A stretch of DNA of 64,000 bases from Eledone cirrhosa (taxonomy: Eukaryota): the NCBI GenBank assembly GCA_964016885.1, contig OZ024761.1, positions 16,182,001 to 16,246,000 on the forward strand. Direction: 5' to 3'. The position numbers and the translations under genes were made by a program. Positions 1-54,608 of this stretch are shown here, piece after piece. Position 1 is the first letter of the stretch. Each line of letters begins with the position of its first letter. The notes below the pieces were generated by a model. That model worked only from the letters and a program-made list of their open reading frames with translations. It made no database searches and was not told where the DNA came from.

Positions 1-226
1 GTAGGTGTCACGACAAAAAAACACACAGTCCACGCTGTAATGTGGCCGTGTAGGTAACACGGTAAAAACCTCCCAGCCCCACACTGTAAACGTGGTTGGT
101 GTTAGGAAGGGCATCCAGCCGTAGAAAACCCACCAGACAGTCCTATACGAGCAGGACAACCAATCTTGCCTCAAGTGGGAAAACTCCCGTCCAAACCCAT
201 GCAAGCGTGGAAGATGGACGTTAAAC

Positions 227-262: not shown

Positions 263-537
263 AGGATAACAAGGACGATTGGTTACTCCTTCATTACATT
301 TATTGTTATCCTTTCAATATATTACACTCTGTATAGCTCTACACCTCAACACAGAAGTGAACCTAAACGTCGAGTGCTCACCCGGGTGAACCTGCAGTAA
401 CTCCAAGTTACACTCCTTAGATATATATATATATATATACATATATGTATGTAAAAGGTAAACAGAAATAACAACACAATCGGTACAGTATATGGAAGGT
501 ATATATTAGGTTAACGCTTAATATAGCAGGAAGAGGG

Positions 538-573
538 TCTTAACGTTTCGGACACTAGTCCTTCATCAGAAGA
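538..573 (-). ncRNA. Minimal type I hammerhead ribozyme (Penelope pLTR type)
   Basis: Minus strand TCTT CTGATGA A GGAC-TAGT-GTCC GAAA CG TT AAGA, with palindromic AACGTT in place of stem III. Confidence 0.7.
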
Positions 574-1524
574 AAGTATGAGAAATAAAATAGATTCAGG
601 GGACGGGCGGGATGGAATTGGAAAAAATGTCTTTAGATAAAGATAACAGGTCCATTCATGTTGACATCTCTTGCAAAATCCTTTCACGTTCCGTCCACTG
701 TGTCAATGACACAACAGTCCACACTGTAAGGTACTTGTGTAGGAGACACGGTAAAAAGGCTCCCCATCCAACCTGTAAATGTGGTTGGTATTATATATAT
801 ATATTAGTAAAAGGAAAAGAAAATGCTGACAAATTTTTCCCAGTGAAAAATAGTTTAATTAGGAATAAGTATTGGTTAGTATTCAGTTTTAGTTTTAAGT
901 TTTTACCGGTTGCGCATTTCTAATGCTTTTCAAAAATAATTTTGAGATAGAGCGCCCGTGATGTTTGCTCTAATATATATATATTTATTTATTTATATAT
1001 CCTTTCCCGTTTTTTACAGCATCTAGCTGTAAAAACAAAAAAAACCTGCCAGATACACTTCCGTATGAGCGAGACACAGTCTCCTGACCATTCCCATATC
1101 AAATGGAACAAAACTGTCTAACCCATGCTAGCATGGAAGATGTACGTTAAATGATGATGATGATCTATATATGTATATATATATATAATTCAAAATTCAA
1201 TAAGATCAAGGATTATTATTATTATTATTTATTTATATATCACTACAGGTGTTTCAATGTGGCTACAGTATCCCATCCATTTGTAGAGAAAAAAAACTGG
1301 ATATTATCAGTTATTTTACTCCATTATGAGTGCCCCATCCACACCATATCTCTGCCCTTTATTCATCCAGTTTCTGCTTGCTCCTGAATAACGAAGGGCT
1401 AAAAAAGTGCCTCAAGCTTAACTCATCTTACCAATGAAAATGGTGAACTGTTACACTATAACCATATATATCATCATCATCATCATCATCATTTTAAGTC
1501 CGCTTTTCCCTTCTTGCAAGGGTT

Positions 1525-1566
<42 letters not shown>

Positions 1567-1714
1567 CGAAGGAAATGTGGTAAGGAACCAGGTGGACCAT
1601 AACGCACCAAAGTACTCAATACTTAGGGTAGTAGAAGAGTGGGTAATAGGAACCAGTAAGACCAGAATTAGCCGTCGAAATGGCTTGTGCTCAGCTGTCG
1701 GGGTCTTACTGGTT

Positions 1715-1758
<44 letters not shown>

Positions 1759-1976
1759 TGATCGAGTATCGAAAAATCGGCGTACGAGTTCACGACAAAC
1801 AAAATTCGATATGAGCGGCAGAGTGCTCACTGATTTAGATAAATCAGAGCTATAACTATCGTTAAAATACCGTCACACACAGAACAAGTCTATAATCAAC
1901 CGCACGATCGAAAATTTGCGATTACGGAAGATTCGGGACACTCAGATAAAAAATCTCAATAATTCAATAAATTAAA

Positions 1977-2041
<65 letters not shown>

Positions 2042-2106
2042 AAGCTGTCGAAATGGCCGGAGTTCAGCCGTAGGGGTCCTGACACTTTTCCTATACATAT
2101 ATATAT

Positions 2107-2140
<34 letters not shown>

Positions 2141-2455
2141 TTCATCATCATCATCATCATCGTTTAAAGTCCATCTTCCATGCTAGCATGGGTTAGATGG
2201 GTTTGTCCCATTTAGAGGCAAGTTGGGTCGGGTGACCGTGACTCACTCATATACAACAGTTTCTGGCTGGTTTGCTATGGCTGGATGCCCTTCCTAGTGC
2301 CAATCAGTTGTAGCATCTGGCAGGAAAACAATGCCTCAAAAATTCCCGTCAAACCCATGCCAGCATGGAAAAGTCGATGTGAAAAATAATGATGATGATG
2401 ATACGTAGTACATACATACGATACATACACAATACAGTATATATATATATTTATA

Positions 2456-2500
<45 letters not shown>

Positions 2501-2654
2501 TTACATATATATATATATATATATGCAAAAGTTTTATTTAAAATTGTTGGGTTACAACAAGTAAATATTTTATAACTGATATAAAGCACTCAACAAGTTT
2601 TGGAGTAGATATACGATATTAAACAAATGGAAACTATATTTATAAAACCATATT

Positions 2655-2720
2655 TATTTCATTATACATATTTCGGGGATACCATATTAAAAATATGGCA
2701 TGCCTTCTTCAGATAAAATA
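2655..2720 (-). ncRNA. Type I hammerhead ribozyme motif (left arm of palindrome 1)
   Basis: Minus strand reads UAUUUUAU-CUGAAGA-A-stem II-GAAA-UAUGUAU-A-AUGAAAUA. Confidence 0.7.
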
Positions 2721-2841
2721 CAATATATAAACAGTTTTATAAATAATTTTGACGTACCATAAATATTGATCAACTTCTTACATAAAAGTTGATCAATATT
2801 TATGGTACGTCAAAATTATTTATAAAACTGTTTATATATTG

Positions 2842-2907
2842 TATTTTATCTGAAGAAGGCATGCCATATTTTTAATATGGCATCCCCGAAATATGTATAA
2901 TGAAATA
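2842..2907 (+). ncRNA. Type I hammerhead ribozyme motif (right arm of palindrome 1)
   Basis: TATTTTAT CTGAAGA A GG-C-ATGCCATATT-TTT-AATATGGCAT-CC-CC GAAA TATGTAT A ATGAAATA. Core boxes, stems I-III and an AUA cleavage triplet are all present. Confidence 0.72.
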
Positions 2908-3149
2908 AATATGGTTTTATAAATATAGTTTCCATTTGTTTAATATCGTATATATATATATATATATATTTATATTTATACATATATATATATTTATATT
3001 TAAATATATATATATGCGGAGGTTATATTTAATTTGTTGGGATTCAACAAGCTTAAACATTTTTATAACTGATATAAAGCACTCAACAATTTAGTGGAGT
3101 AAATACACAATATATTAATAAATGGAAACTATATTTATAAAACCATATT

Positions 3150-3215
3150 TATTTTATTATACATATTTCAAGGGCCACCAAGGCAAATTATGGTGCGCTT
3201 TCATCAGATAAAATA
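3150..3215 (-). ncRNA. Type I hammerhead ribozyme motif (left arm of palindrome 2)
   Basis: Reverse complement of the 3322-3387 motif with one difference in stem II. Confidence 0.68.
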
Positions 3216-3321
3216 CAGATTTGTTTTATAAATATTGACATACCCAGAAAAAAAGAATCTCCAACCGTTAAGGTTGTCTTTTTTTCCGGGTATGTCAATA
3301 TTTATTTATGAAACAAATCTG

Positions 3322-3387
3322 TATTTTATCTGATGAAAGCACACCATAATTTGCCTTGGTGGCCCTTGAAATATGTATAATAAAATA
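3322..3387 (+). ncRNA. Type I hammerhead ribozyme motif (right arm of palindrome 2)
   Basis: TATTTTAT CTGATGA AAG-CA-CACCA-loop-TGGTG-GCC-CTT GAAA TATGTAT A ATAAAATA; perfect 8-bp stem I. Confidence 0.7.
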
Positions 3388-3427
3388 AATATGGTTTTAT
3401 AAATATAGTTTCCATTTATTAATATAT

Positions 3428-3465
<38 letters not shown>

Positions 3466-3567
3466 TATTTATATTTATATATATATTTATTTATATTTAT
3501 ATATACATATATATATATATTTATTTATTTATATATATATATTTTTTTTTATATATATATATATATG

Positions 3568-3651
<84 letters not shown>

Positions 3652-5002
3652 AACAAATTTCCTGAATTCTTCCGATCCCCTCTCTCCCCTTTCTCCCCTC
3701 CCCCCTACCCTGTTGTCCCCCTCACACACTTGCAGTCAGTTCCTATCAGATTTTCTTCCCCCACACCACACACACACACAGACTAACTCATATATACACA
3801 CACTAATTTACACACACACAGAGACTTACCCACATACACACAAACATATTTTGTCAGGGTTCAACAATGGAACTCTTTGTGTTCTGCCTAAGTACCAACT
3901 TCCTGGGTTTCTCTCTCTCTCTCTCTCTCTCTACCTTTATATATCTGTCCATCTTTCTCTGTCTGTCTGTTTACCCCCCCCCCCCCCTCTCTGTCCGCCT
4001 GTCTGTCTTACCCCTCCTCTCTCTCTCTCTCTCTCTCTCTCTGTTTATCTCTCTCTCTCCCTCTCTTCCTCTCTCTCTCTTTCCCTATCTCTCCCTATCT
4101 CTCTTGCTCTCTATCTCTGTCTATCCTTCTTTCTCTGTCTGTCTGTCTCTCTCTCTCTCTCCCTCCCTCCCTTCCTCTCTCTCTGTCCATATCTCTCTTG
4201 CTCTCTATCTCTATCTATCCTTCTTTCTCTGTCTGTCTGTCTATCTCTCTCCCTCCCTCCCTCTCTGTCCCTATCTCTACATATCTCTCTGTCCATCTGT
4301 CTATACCCCCCCCCCCCTTCTCTTGCTCTTTATCTCTGTCCATCTCTCTCTCTCCGTCTGTCTCTCTACCTCTCTCCCTCCTCTCTCTATTGCTCTCTCC
4401 CCCTCTCTCTATTGCTCTCTGTTCCCTGATTCTATCTCCTGTCAAAGAGCAGGAGAGCTTGTAGAATACTTTCTTATTTGTAACACTGGAGCTGTATGTA
4501 TGGTTGTGTGTATGTATGGTTGTGTGTATGTATGGTTGTGTGTATGTATGGTTGTGTGTATGTATGTATTATGTGAGTATGTATGGTTGTGTGTATGTAT
4601 GTATGTATGTATTATGTGAGTATGAATGGTTGTGTGTATGTATGTATGTATTATGTGAGTATGTATGGTTGTGTGTATGTATGTATGTATTATGTGAGTA
4701 TGTATGGTTGTGTGTATGTATGTATGTATTATGTGAGTATGTATGGTTGTGTGTATTTATGTATGTATTATGTGAGTATGAATGTATGTATGAATATGTA
4801 TGTATGGTTGTGTGTATGTATGTATGTATTATGTGAGTATGAATGTATGTATGGTTGTGTGTATGTATGTATGTGTACTCTATGCATGTATGAGTATGAA
4901 TGTATGTGCATATATATGTATGGATGTGTGTATGTATGTATGGATGTGTCTATGCATGCATGTGAGTATGAATGTATGTGTGTATGTATGTATGTTTTTT
5001 GT

Positions 5003-5537
5003 ATCATCATCATCACCGTTTTACGTCCACGCTAGCATGGGTTAGACGGGTTGTCCTGTTGTGGGCAGTGTCCGGTCAGCTGACCATGTCTTGCTCATAC
5101 AGGAACTGATTCTGGCTTGATTTCTACAGCTGGATGCCCTTCCTAACACCAACCTCATTTACAGTGAGTGCTGGCTGCTTTTATTTTTGGTACCTCCACG
5201 TCCACTTTACAGTGTGGGCTGTGTGTTTTTTGCCGTGGCACCTCCACAACCACTTTGCAGTGAGTGCTGGGTGCTTCTTTTTCCGTGGTTCCTCTACGTC
5301 CATTTTACAGTGTGGGCTGGGTGCTTTTTTTTCTGTGGCACCTCCACGTCCACTTTACAGTGTGGGCTGGGTGCTTTTTTGCAGTGGAAAGATAGTGACC
5401 CCAGTCCCTATCATCTCATTTCTACAGCTGAGTGAACTGAAGCAATGTGAAATAAAGTGTCTTGCTGAAGGAAACAACACATCACCCAGTCCGAGAATTG
5501 AACTCACAACCTTTTGATTGCAAGCCTAATGCTCTAA
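5003..5537 (-). mobile_element. tRNA-derived SINE, family A, with expanded internal subrepeats and tail type B
   Basis: Minus strand head GGCGCATGGCTTAGTAG...GAGTTCAATTC (A/B boxes), GCAAGACACTTTATTTC body, several ~43-bp subrepeats, GGAAGGGCATCCAGC motif, (GAT)n tail. Confidence 0.8.
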
Positions 5538-5554
5538 CTACTAAGCCATGCGCC

Positions 5555-5612
<58 letters not shown>

Positions 5613-5615
<3 letters not shown>

Positions 5616-5918
5616 TCATCATCATCATTTTATGTCCGCTTTTCCCTGCTTGCAAGGGTGGGACAGGAACTGATTCTGGCTTGATTTCTACAGCTGGATG
5701 CCCTTCCTAACACCAACCTCATTTACAGTGAGTGCTGAGTGCTTTTTTGCCGTGGCACCTCCACGACCACTTTGAAGTGGAATGATAGGGACCCCAGTCC
5801 CTATCATCTCATTTCTACAGCTGAGTAAACTGGAGCAATGTGAAATAAAGTGTCTTGCTCAAGGAAACAACACATCACCCGGTCTGAGAATTGAACTCAC
5901 AACCTTTCGATTGCAAGC
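5613..5918 (-). mobile_element. SINE family A (5'-truncated), tail type A
   Basis: Same body as 24098-24424. Confidence 0.8.
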
Positions 5919-5943
5919 ATATATATATATATACATATATATA

Positions 5944-6360
5944 TCATCATCATCATCATCATTTTAAGTCCGCTCTTCCCTACTTGCAAGGGTGGGGCGG
6001 GTCTTATTCAGCACAGCATCTCTCCACTTGTCACGGTCCTTCGTCATCTCCACCATGAGCTTCAGAGATCTGAGGTCTGTTCTCACCACCTCCGCCCATG
6101 TTTTTCGTTGTCTACCTGTACCACGTCTTCCTTCAACTGGTATTTCCTGGCACTTCTTCACCCATCGGTCATCCTCCATGCGCATCACATGTCCATACCA
6201 CCTCAGTCTCCTCTCCTCCACACTACATTCTATCCCTCGCAGACACAGTTTCTCTCTCAACACATTCATGCTGGGTCGTTCACGCACATTGACACTGCAC
6301 ATCCAACGGAGCATGCTTGCCTCATTTCTCTCCAGCCGTCGCATATCCTCTGCAGTTGCA
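5944..6360 (-). mobile_element. RTE-clade LINE 3' fragment
   Basis: TAEDMRRLERNEASMLRWMC...RRLRWYGHVMRM...GRRGTGRQRKTW...DRDKWRDAV, then a (GAT)n tail. A shorter copy is at ~60728-60860 (+). Confidence 0.9.
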
Positions 6361-22200: not shown

Positions 22201-25200
22201 CACACACACATATTTTATATCTTGAATATATTCAGTTGTACATAAATAAATGTACACTCTACATAAATCTTTCTGTTTCCTGTTGCAGTCTTCTTCTGAA
22301 GATGCTGGTCGTTTCCTGCTGTTTTCTGGGGCCACTGGTCAATCCCTCGGGACCTTTGTAAATGCTACTTCGAAGAACCAATGTATCGACAAGAATCTTG
22401 TCCTCTACAAGTCATCAGATAACAACCTGAACATTCTCTTTAGCGGGGGCCAGCAACCTTTACCAGGTATTTATTTATCTATTTCCTCTTGGGTCCCTAA
22501 TAATCGGGGAGGCTGAGGGTGGGGGGTTGGAATAAGTGGTACTTTTAGAAAATTGGTAATTTTTCTAGGTTGTCTCATTGATTTTTTTTTAAAAACCAGA
22601 ATTATTGGTTTAGTTTACATATTGAGACCCTGAAACCTACCTGTTTATTTTATAATATATGGGATTTCTAGTAATGTATTTTTTGGACCATGTGAATGTT
22701 TTTTTAATGTATAAAGAAACATTTCGCCAGAGAGGGAGTAGCAAAATTTAATGGGAGGAGAGTAAGAACGCGGAGGAGGGGCGGGGGAGTATAGGCCTTT
22801 GCTTTTCTCTTGGACAACATCGGTGGCGTGGAGAGGGGAAACTTGTATGCATGAGCGACTGCTGGTCTTCCACAAACACCTTGCCTGGGCTTGTGTCTCA
22901 AAGGGGAACTTTCCAGATGCAAATCCCAGGTTCATTGATGATTGAAGGAGATGTTTTTACTTTTCATGTATATATATATATACAAACAATAAATGGAAAC
23001 AACAAAGTGAACAACACAGTATAAAGAAGAAATATATTAGTTTAACACTAAATATAGTAAGAAAAGGGTCTTTATGTTTCAGACACTAGTCCTTCATCAG
23101 AAGATAGAATGAGAAATAAAAAATGAAATAGGAAGCTAGAGAGCAAGAAGAGAAAGGAATGGAACTTTTTTTTTATGAAAGTATGTGTGTATCCAGCCAG
23201 CCAATATGTATATATACAAAAGCAAGATGGTAAAGGACAGAACAAAGGAGAGATACAAAATAAGAAATTAGTCGCAGAGCTTTGACAATATATAAACAAC
23301 CATCCGGTTATTGAACTCGCCAACCAGAAATTTATGATAAATTGAAGGGAAATCCAACAGGTGCATGTGTTTTTATTGGCAGCATGACCCTCCCAAAGTG
23401 GTCGTGGAGGTGCCACGGCAAAAAAGCACCCAGCCCACACTGTAAAGTGGACGTGTAGGCGCCACGAAAAAGCACCCAGCGCTCACTGTAAATGAGGTTG
23501 GTGTTAGGAAGGGCATCCAGCTGTAGAAATCAAGCCAGAATCAGTTCCTGTATGAGCAAGGCATGGTCAGCCGACCAGACACTACACACAACAGGACAAC
23601 CCGTCTAACCCATGCTAGCGTGGAAGAACGGACGTAAAACGGTGATGATGATGTTAGTTAGGTGTTTAATTACAGTTACAGGCAGCTACGTTGTTCGAAG
23701 TACTCAATGCTTCATTTGGGTTGTATTCCAGAGTTAAGGCAGCTGTAGTTCACAGAGGGTAAATAGATCAAGAAGAATCGAAATCAGTGTTGCAGCATAA
23801 GTACAAACTTTATTGGCATATTACAATTGCTTTGATTGATATCGATCAGCTCAGAGTGCAATCAAGATGTCGGGGCCCAACTCTTTTTCGACAGCTTGTC
23901 AAAAATAGTTACAACCAAATATTGCTTTTAGAAAATAGGAAGGCATAACTGCGGTACGTGAAGAGATTTTTTGAAATATTTTCTCAGTTTCAGAAGATCC
24001 CGTGTAGGGTGAAAGCAGAATTTCTTTGCTTAAACTTTGATCGGTACTAATAATAAATATTTTTTCTACGGGTTTATATATACATATATATATACATGGA
24101 GGCACATGGCTTAGTGGTTAGAGCATTGGCCTTGCAATCGAAAGGTTGTGAGTTCAATTCTCAGACCGGGTGATGTGTTGTTTCCTTGAGCAAGACACTT
24201 TATTTCACATTGCTCCAGTTTACTCAGCTGTAGAAATGAGATGATAGGGACTGGGGTCCCTATCATTCCACTCCAAAGTGGTCGTGTAGGCGCCACGGAA
24301 AAAAAGCACCCAGCACTCACTGTAAATGAGGTTGGTGTTAGGAAGGGCATCCAGCTGTAGAAATCAAGCCAGAATCAGTTCCCGTCCCACTCTTGCAAGC
24401 AGGGAAAAAGCGGACGTAAAATGAAGGAAAAAATGAATGAAATACAATCCTTATTGAGCCCTCTTTGGATTTTGGTCTTTGTATTTATTATTCCTATATA
24501 TATATATATATGTATATATTTGTACTTACTCTCCACAGGTGCTCTACATCATATACATTGGGATGTTTTAAGAAAACAGATATTGGATCCCAAAGTAGAG
24601 CAAATCACAGACATCAAAACCATCTATGAGTAAGTCCTTAATCTCTTTTGTTATAAGACTACCTGAAACAACCAGTGATTCTATGATACAAAACTCATCA
24701 TCATCATTGTTTAATGTTTGTTTTCCCTGCTAGCAAGTACAGACCTGTCTGTAATCACGTGGAACTCCTCAACTCTCAGACAGGTCAGTGGGATCCTGCA
24801 TCTCGCTTGCATGCTATCCCGTGCTCTACCAAGTGCAATTTTATTGTGGTACCAGCGCTAAGGAGGTTGTCATTCATATCTCCTCCTTTTCTTCTTTTTC
24901 TTCTTCTTGTTTTTCTTCTCGTTCGTCTTCTTCTCCTCCTCCTCCTCCTTTTCTTCTTTTTCTTCTTCTTGTTTTTCTTCTCGTTCGTCTTCTCCTCCTC
25001 CTCCTCCTCCTTTTCTTTTTCTTCTCGTTCGTCTTCTTCTTCTCCTCCTCCTCCTCCTTTTCTTTTTCTTCTTGTTTTTCTTCTCGTTCGTCTTCTTCTC
25101 CTCCTCCTCCTCCGCCTTTTCTTCTTTTTCTTCTTCTCGTTCGTCTTCTTCTTCTACTCCTCCTCCCTCTTCAATTGTAGATCATGTGTTCAATTATTGC

Positions 25201-53824: not shown

Positions 53825-54608
<784 letters not shown>

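Follow-up and report, generated by a model that had tools for sequence, protein, structure and literature searches.

The 64-kb stretch of Eledone cirrhosa DNA analysed here, referred to as the window, contains two adjacent long palindromes with a hammerhead ribozyme motif in every arm, and the question raised by the locus is what these structures are and how they came to lie in (TA)n microsatellite sequence. The original prediction had recognised two long palindromes with hammerheads, and this is borne out: a generic type I descriptor applied to both strands of the 64 kb gives exactly four matches, one per arm, and the cleavage positions proposed at the time, 2899 and 3379, are the cuts that the descriptor predicts. 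The boundaries have been moved, as 2525-2608 and 3016-3104 are the 3' tails of the elements and not flanking sequence.

The palindromes and the element behind them

Palindrome 1 has arms of 171 nt each (2606-2776 and 2786-2956), 99% complementary with differences at 2 sites, around a loop of 9 nt. Palindrome 2 has an ungapped core of 135 nt (3100-3234 and 3303-3437) that is 97% complementary, and its arms overlap over ~155 nt once one 4-nt indel is allowed. Sequence comparison identifies each of them as an insertion into (TA)n of a Hydra-clade Penelope-like element (PLE), 5'-truncated and 5'-inverted, with the element oriented along the minus strand of the window. A hammerhead is found in every arm because both arms copy the same element end. 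In element 1, the tail stops at a site designated B (2525) and the inverted arm at a site designated A (~2948-2953), both against (TA)n, and the two arms are joined at a 6-nt microhomology (2771-2776). The parts of both elements are collected in Table 1.

Table 1. Features of the two palindromic insertions and their surroundings, in window coordinates
Feature	Position	Strand	Basis or remark
Left flanking (TA)n-type tract	2436-2524		Sequence
Element 1 sense arm	2525-2776	-	3' UTR end + pLTR with hammerhead + ~89-nt tail; 99-100% to pLTR+tail of full-length L021/L022
Putative start-site hairpin 1 of element 1	2585-2606	-	RCUC..UG-UY-GAGY-RCU, ~7 nt 3' of site A on the RNA
Type I hammerhead motif	2655-2720	-	Predicted cut after 2663; A.C at 10.1-11.1
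Element 1 inverted 5'-truncated arm	2771-2953	+	BLAST against full-length L022; relatives end alike
Type I hammerhead motif	2842-2907	+	Predicted cut after 2899
(TA)n-type tract separating both insertions (target microsatellite)	2949-3015		Sequence
Element 2 sense arm	3016-3256	-	pLTR + tail as far as site B (3016); ~80% to element 1, sister subfamily
Putative start-site hairpin 1 of element 2	3078-3100	-	Hairpin pattern
Type I hammerhead motif	3150-3215	-	Predicted cut after 3158
Element 2 inverted arm	3260-3432	+	Ends at site A, against (TA)n
Type I hammerhead motif	3322-3387	+	Predicted cut after 3379
Right flanking (TA)n-type tract	3433-3647		Sequence

The minus strand of 2525-2776 yields 1,723 first-look candidates in the genome, and 13 of the 40 matches scored are 100% identical over all 252 nt, at the top score; upstream, the copies extend to different points. 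A whole unit is present at locus L022, which comprises an inverted arm, a pLTR, a broken ORF, a 3' UTR of ~1.7 kb, another pLTR, the tail and (TA)n; the unit spans 4,091 nt between successive hammerhead cuts. The pLTR that is 99% identical to that of the window flanks RT/GIY-YIG frames. The genome-wide search with the arms and its link to an ORF, both of which had been suggested at the outset, thus support the proposed PLE origin and the inverted pLTR copies. Tail ends adjoin TA runs in nearly all fetched loci, and assembled contigs from four sequencing runs contain many variants of the family.

A piece of the RT gives 27,766 first-look candidates in the genome, and 20 loci chosen for long frames contain 21 open frames of 737-775 aa. 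DKT (as VKSDKTN) is preserved in 21/21 frames and CxCX5C in 20/21; RIRWR, Y.DD and CxxC occur in all 20 frames listed and CxH in 17 of the 20, with RWK in 8 of 11 aligned homologues. The frames with YRDD and a C-terminal IIY..YVG are, by motif and alignment, an RT followed by a GIY-YIG-type EN, and CCHH is absent from them in the alignment as inspected by eye. Pfam searches with ORF pieces and an intact frame gave neither RT nor GIY-YIG at the cut-off (RVT_1 E=0.027), and a PDB sequence search with the element protein gave no match, so the domain assignments depend on motifs and on a resemblance, judged by eye, to published Hydra proteins. Among named proteins, the best relative comes from Argonauta hians (39%). 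The pLTR of element 2 adjoins a homologous ORF start in 7 of the 10 loci fetched by its tail pattern, the five longer of these matches having aa identities of ~72-77%, and element 2 is, as judged by likeness, a sister subfamily of element 1 (~80% identical). Because these pLTRs flank or adjoin RT/GIY-YIG ORFs, both window elements are regarded as truncated copies of coding elements.

Motifs, alignment and by-eye comparison with published proteins place the family in the Hydra clade. Members of this clade are described as having RW[KR], DKT, CxCX5C, CxxC, CxH, a C-terminal EN, a single ORF and (TA)n targets, with a type I hammerhead near the 3' end, a length generally <3 kb and a tail of 30-40 nt (Craig et al. 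2021, PMC8557442). The supplement to that paper describes Penelope-13_HM as having a 5'-truncated inverted copy, with hammerheads listed for both strands, and the palindrome layout with hammerheads on both strands is in that respect already published. The present family shares with these elements the ORF motifs (a single ORF, RWK/DKT, CxCX5C and CxxC/CxH without CCHH), the (TA)n insertion, the hammerhead, which lies in the pLTR, and the inverted copy, as in Penelope-13_HM. Features of EN+ PLE units are likewise found, namely 5' truncation, an inverted 5' copy, a one-sided tail and partial tandem pLTRs. Compared with the typical Hydra elements of that source, the family differs in its unit of 4.09 kb with a ~1.7-kb 3' UTR, which accounts for the excess over a length tendency that is not diagnostic, and in its tail of ~89 nt. 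The stem II insert, at 26-32 nt, exceeds that of the canonical Hydra entries in the published table, and the hammerhead sequence differs from that of Hydra-1_Obim, which points to another family.

Several copies elsewhere have features of their own. L075 (G000:C4:320953000-320962999) contains two open 737-aa frames head to head within one ~7.5-kb palindrome, and beside one family copy at L009 (2585-3250, minus strand) there is a 222-aa open frame, which we take to resemble a Tc1/mariner transposase. In the window itself, 54357-54597 weakly resembles the 3' UTR of the Hydra unit (71-77%) in both orientations and is taken to be an old fold-back fragment.

Hammerhead motifs and their predicted folding

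The four motifs have the CUGANGA/GAAA core, the NUH site and the helices I-III with covariation that are characteristic of type I hammerheads; stem I is 8 bp in each, and the stem II insert is 26-32 nt in hammerheads of the window type. Exact occurrences of the family pattern number 55,685 in the 3.0 Gb of genome scanned (28,016 on the plus and 27,669 on the minus strand), against 0 for the reversed control, and the motifs are therefore not due to chance. An Rfam scan of 1500-5000, the check originally suggested, returned no hammerhead match up to E=5 and only microsatellite noise.

Selection on the hammerhead structure had also been proposed, and covariation supports it. In an alignment of 27 hand-picked sequences (4 from the window and 23 of 65 distinct variants), both sides change in 12 of 19 pairs, and in 8 of the 9 pairs of stem II. 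Pairing is preserved in 93% of the alignment cells, a value that 0 of 500 shuffles reached, with 36-55% in slid controls. Conservation of the core among these 27 sequences is by construction, because the search pattern required it. In an unfiltered BLAST set of 138 pLTR matches, 75 passed the strict hammerhead pattern, and the other 63, inspected by eye, are mostly truncated or carry the ATATATAT helix variant, with a changed core in ~5. The statement that stem II is completely different between the two elements and still pairs holds for the covariation but not for the complete difference: 15 of 31 letters are equal without gaps, including a CCA/UGG core, so that the two inserts are better described as diverged homologues than as unrelated sequences.

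PLE hammerheads have been described as type I, with an enlarged helix II and a palindromic helix III, and as predicted dimers, and in Schistosoma dual hammerhead motifs on opposite strands are reported at distances of 100-700 bp (Cervera and de la Pena 2014, PMC4209133). The type with a short palindromic helix III is described as needing dimers (PMC4209133; review PMC6765202). The window motifs resemble the hammerheads of the first of these sources in type, in the enlarged helix II and in the palindromic helix III. Unlike those hammerheads, the family has mostly A-U (84/142) or A.C (43/142, with the A.C mismatch in element 1) at 10.1-11.1 instead of G-C, and its 8-bp stem I has a predicted distal extension of 12-13 bp. 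Helix III consists of 2 bp and a self-complementary loop, in three variants that account for 80, 61 and 1 of the 142 sequences within what the pattern allowed, and the computed energy of the 8-mer self-duplex is -2.2 kcal/mol. With a helix III of this kind, cleavage would likely need a dimer or a protein. The distal helix, formed by 2817-2828 with 2914-2925 on the plus strand and by the mirror positions, prolongs stem I past an internal loop in both subfamilies, and a tertiary contact with loop II is possible.

In the predicted folds of whole elements, CUGANGA is paired with P=1.00 in all four cases, on either strand, and the duplexes have predicted energies of -246 to -265 kcal/mol with the core fully paired. 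The earlier suggestion that the core is masked in a read-through transcript is supported, as a prediction, by these folds. Free cleavage of transcripts that start at the centre, which had been proposed as well, appears doubtful in light of the 2-bp helix III and of the cost of the hammerhead fold in its natural flank, which is 5.5 kcal/mol above the best fold in element 1 and 2.8-3.3 kcal/mol above it in element 2.

Other hammerheads were encountered alongside this family. At L023:2902-2972, on the minus strand, a distant family shares the hammerhead layout and the ATATATAT helix III but has unrelated stems; this sequence contributes much of the covariation in stem I. The window contains a different, minimal type I hammerhead at 533-575 (minus strand), whose stem II is 4 bp long and whose helix III is the palindrome ACGT. 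A decayed relative lies at 23064-23106 (minus strand), and the two probably represent another PLE family.

Two fixed ends and the origin of the inverted arms

The ends seen in the window recur at other loci. Among 156 hammerhead copies, most of them at loci retrieved with tail-bearing queries, a choice that enriches for B ends, (TA)n is reached at +47..57 from the cut in 54 and at +137..150 in 67, with 8 ending elsewhere and 27 lacking a TA run in reach. Site A accordingly lies at ~+49 and site B at ~+138 from the hammerhead cut. When 38 head-to-head neighbours were classified, with the A end assigned by the absence of hairpin 1 and some copies therefore misclassified, 27 were A+B, 3 A+A and 1 B+B, and 7 had an internal pLTR; at loci picked by position (L080-L109), all 5 head-to-head pairs were A+B. 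Genome patterns gave 2,388 A-end and 1,161 read-through matches, counts that are not a ratio test because the A pattern spans more subfamilies. Within the first 100 matches listed, pairs less than 5 kb apart comprise 19 head-to-head, 2 tail-to-tail and 3 same-strand cases, and 7 pairs lie within 600 bp, which extrapolates roughly to a few thousand short palindromes in the genome. Arm lengths and turning points differ from copy to copy, and the longer arm can be either one (L126 versus L128).

With a probability of roughly 0.9, the palindromes are short Hydra-clade PLE insertions of two head-to-head hammerhead-bearing ends, likely produced when the two ends of one cut in (TA)n prime cDNA synthesis, each at one of two fixed positions on the RNA, and the products are joined. 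The identity to the pLTR and tail of ORF-bearing units, the two fixed ends, the A+B pairing of arms, the 6-nt joint and the covarying hammerhead are direct observations. In the proposed sequence of events, the hammerhead, as a dimer or with the help of a protein, would process the full-length RNA, and the template would be either a circular RNA joined at the hammerhead cut or a tandem transcript left uncleaved. A dimeric RT/EN would cut both strands of the (TA)n target, and cDNA would start at site A (~+49) and at site B (~+138), each start being positioned by a small hairpin 6-9 nt downstream; the two short cDNAs would then be joined into a palindrome. Such two-ended priming fits the ends, the pairing, the joint and the upstream reach of the arms. 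A circle would explain why L022, L126 and L128 cross the hammerhead cut site twice, and tandem precursors would do so equally. Between the arms and pLTRs of a single insertion there are mostly 0-2 differences over 110 sites, a closeness that does not separate the two templates because other copies are often as close. The motifs in the window stubs would be passengers, predicted to be locked in a duplex of ~155-170 bp if read through.

For Poseidon PAc in vitro, both strands are reported to be cut and extended from two RT start sites bounding the tail, at AT-rich targets and with little homology at priming (Frangieh et al. 2024, PMC11167929). The present family resembles that system in its AT-rich target and in two putative RT start sites bounding the tail, and differs in that Poseidon PAc belongs to another clade.

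The main alternative, for the same element, is that a single cDNA folded back and primed itself, or switched template, to give the inverted arm; self-priming has been proposed for inverted PLE junctions (PMC3846280). Element 1 does turn at a small natural hairpin (CAACTT..AAGTTG) with 6-nt microhomology. However, the inverted arm stops at the fixed site A without mirroring the tail (27 of 38 pairs being A+B), it reaches further upstream than the sense arm in both window elements, a stretch that could not be copied if the sense cDNA simply folded back, and the turning points vary among copies; this route is unlikely.

Far less probable is a non-autonomous retrozyme or MITE-like family in which the palindromic unit is mobile as such, the first of which had been part of the original prediction. 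Metazoan non-LTR retrozymes are described as tandem non-coding monomers with type I hammerheads, a link to PLEs and very high copy number (PMC7229834; bioRxiv 10.64898/2026.07.22.740005). The present family is similar in its hammerhead type, its PLE link and its very high copy number, and the locus has no ORF, with short palindromes being common (the 7 pairs noted above). In contrast to retrozymes, the window palindromes are truncated ends of a coding element of which ORF-bearing full copies exist, and they are 99% identical to the pLTRs of these units. Their arm lengths and junctions vary by copy, and tandem monomers are absent, with no such array in the window. The sole candidate for a tandem derivative, L124 (G000:C4:319061500-319070000), has three repeats of the post-cleavage 200 nt at ~1.06-kb spacing without hammerhead cores, and was rejected. 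A host-selected RNA switch, in which dsRNA masks the ribozyme or feeds ADAR/Dicer at the window locus, is just as improbable: the predicted duplexes (-246 to -265 kcal/mol) do pair the core fully and cephalopods show heavy A-to-I editing, but the copies are young (as the 13 identical matches among 40 indicate), this is one of thousands, and the geometry already follows from the insertion mechanism.

A small hairpin beside the two ends

A hairpin of the form RCUC..UG-UY-GAGY-RCU begins at ~+56 and again at +146..153, 6-9 nt past each end. The second hairpin is confined to the 5' UTR of internal junctions, with 12 exact genome matches in the subfamily of element 1. Within the genome, 2 of 7 pairs have double changes, a result equalled in 420 of 500 shuffles, and the search pattern itself required the basal stem of the hairpin. 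Its structural support in this genome is thin, and the support it has here is positional and sequence-based.

The published Hydra consensi offer a broader comparison, made by eye. Hydra-2_Amil and Hydra-2_Ajap have the same hairpin frame with different, fully paired upper stems, located after the TA-rich junction on the 3' side; two copies occur at the 5' end of Hydra-1_Ajap, Hydra-1_Crog has variants, and the Hydra-1_Amil and Hydra-1_Obim consensi contain no clear copy. Over these six consensi the tally is 3 clear, 1 variant and 2 unclear, and the hairpin-bearing elements include coral and sea-cucumber ones. It is tentatively suggested, at somewhat less than even odds, that in Hydra-clade PLEs a clade-wide duplicated hairpin (RCUC-stem-loop-stem-UH-GAGY-RCU) sets two RT start sites, one per dimer subunit. 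Under this hypothesis, more-than-unit copies would be primed at site B on a hammerhead-cut, ligated circle of ~4.1 kb, the palindromes would be footprints of two-ended priming, and the spacing of the hairpins would set the tail length. For such copies the scheme requires a circle because the second hairpin occurs only in the 5' UTR. Among the literature titles and abstracts searched, none concerns this hairpin or family, and the main text of an O. vulgaris repeat annotation (PMC13282606) mentions neither ribozyme nor palindrome nor Hydra.

The palindromes are, for the most part, ordinary PLE debris, from a new and very abundant family of a known clade with a known insertion pattern. Less ordinary are the two fixed ends beside a repeated hairpin, which constitute a putative, testable start-site signal and make the family a handle on an unsettled step, namely how PLEs choose their RT start sites and give rise to inverted copies with one tail. 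A PAc-type assay could test the signal directly, because the family is young and has intact frames, tens of thousands of copies and two sharp ends. The ~55,000 hammerhead motifs, many of them in fold-back pairs, may also be a large source of dsRNA.

Other repeats in the window include many short ones that carry (CAT)n at their tips and sit within (TA)n, at 1-2420 and 4985-6010, and a GC-rich motif that is found at 1670-1705 and again at 2043-2078.
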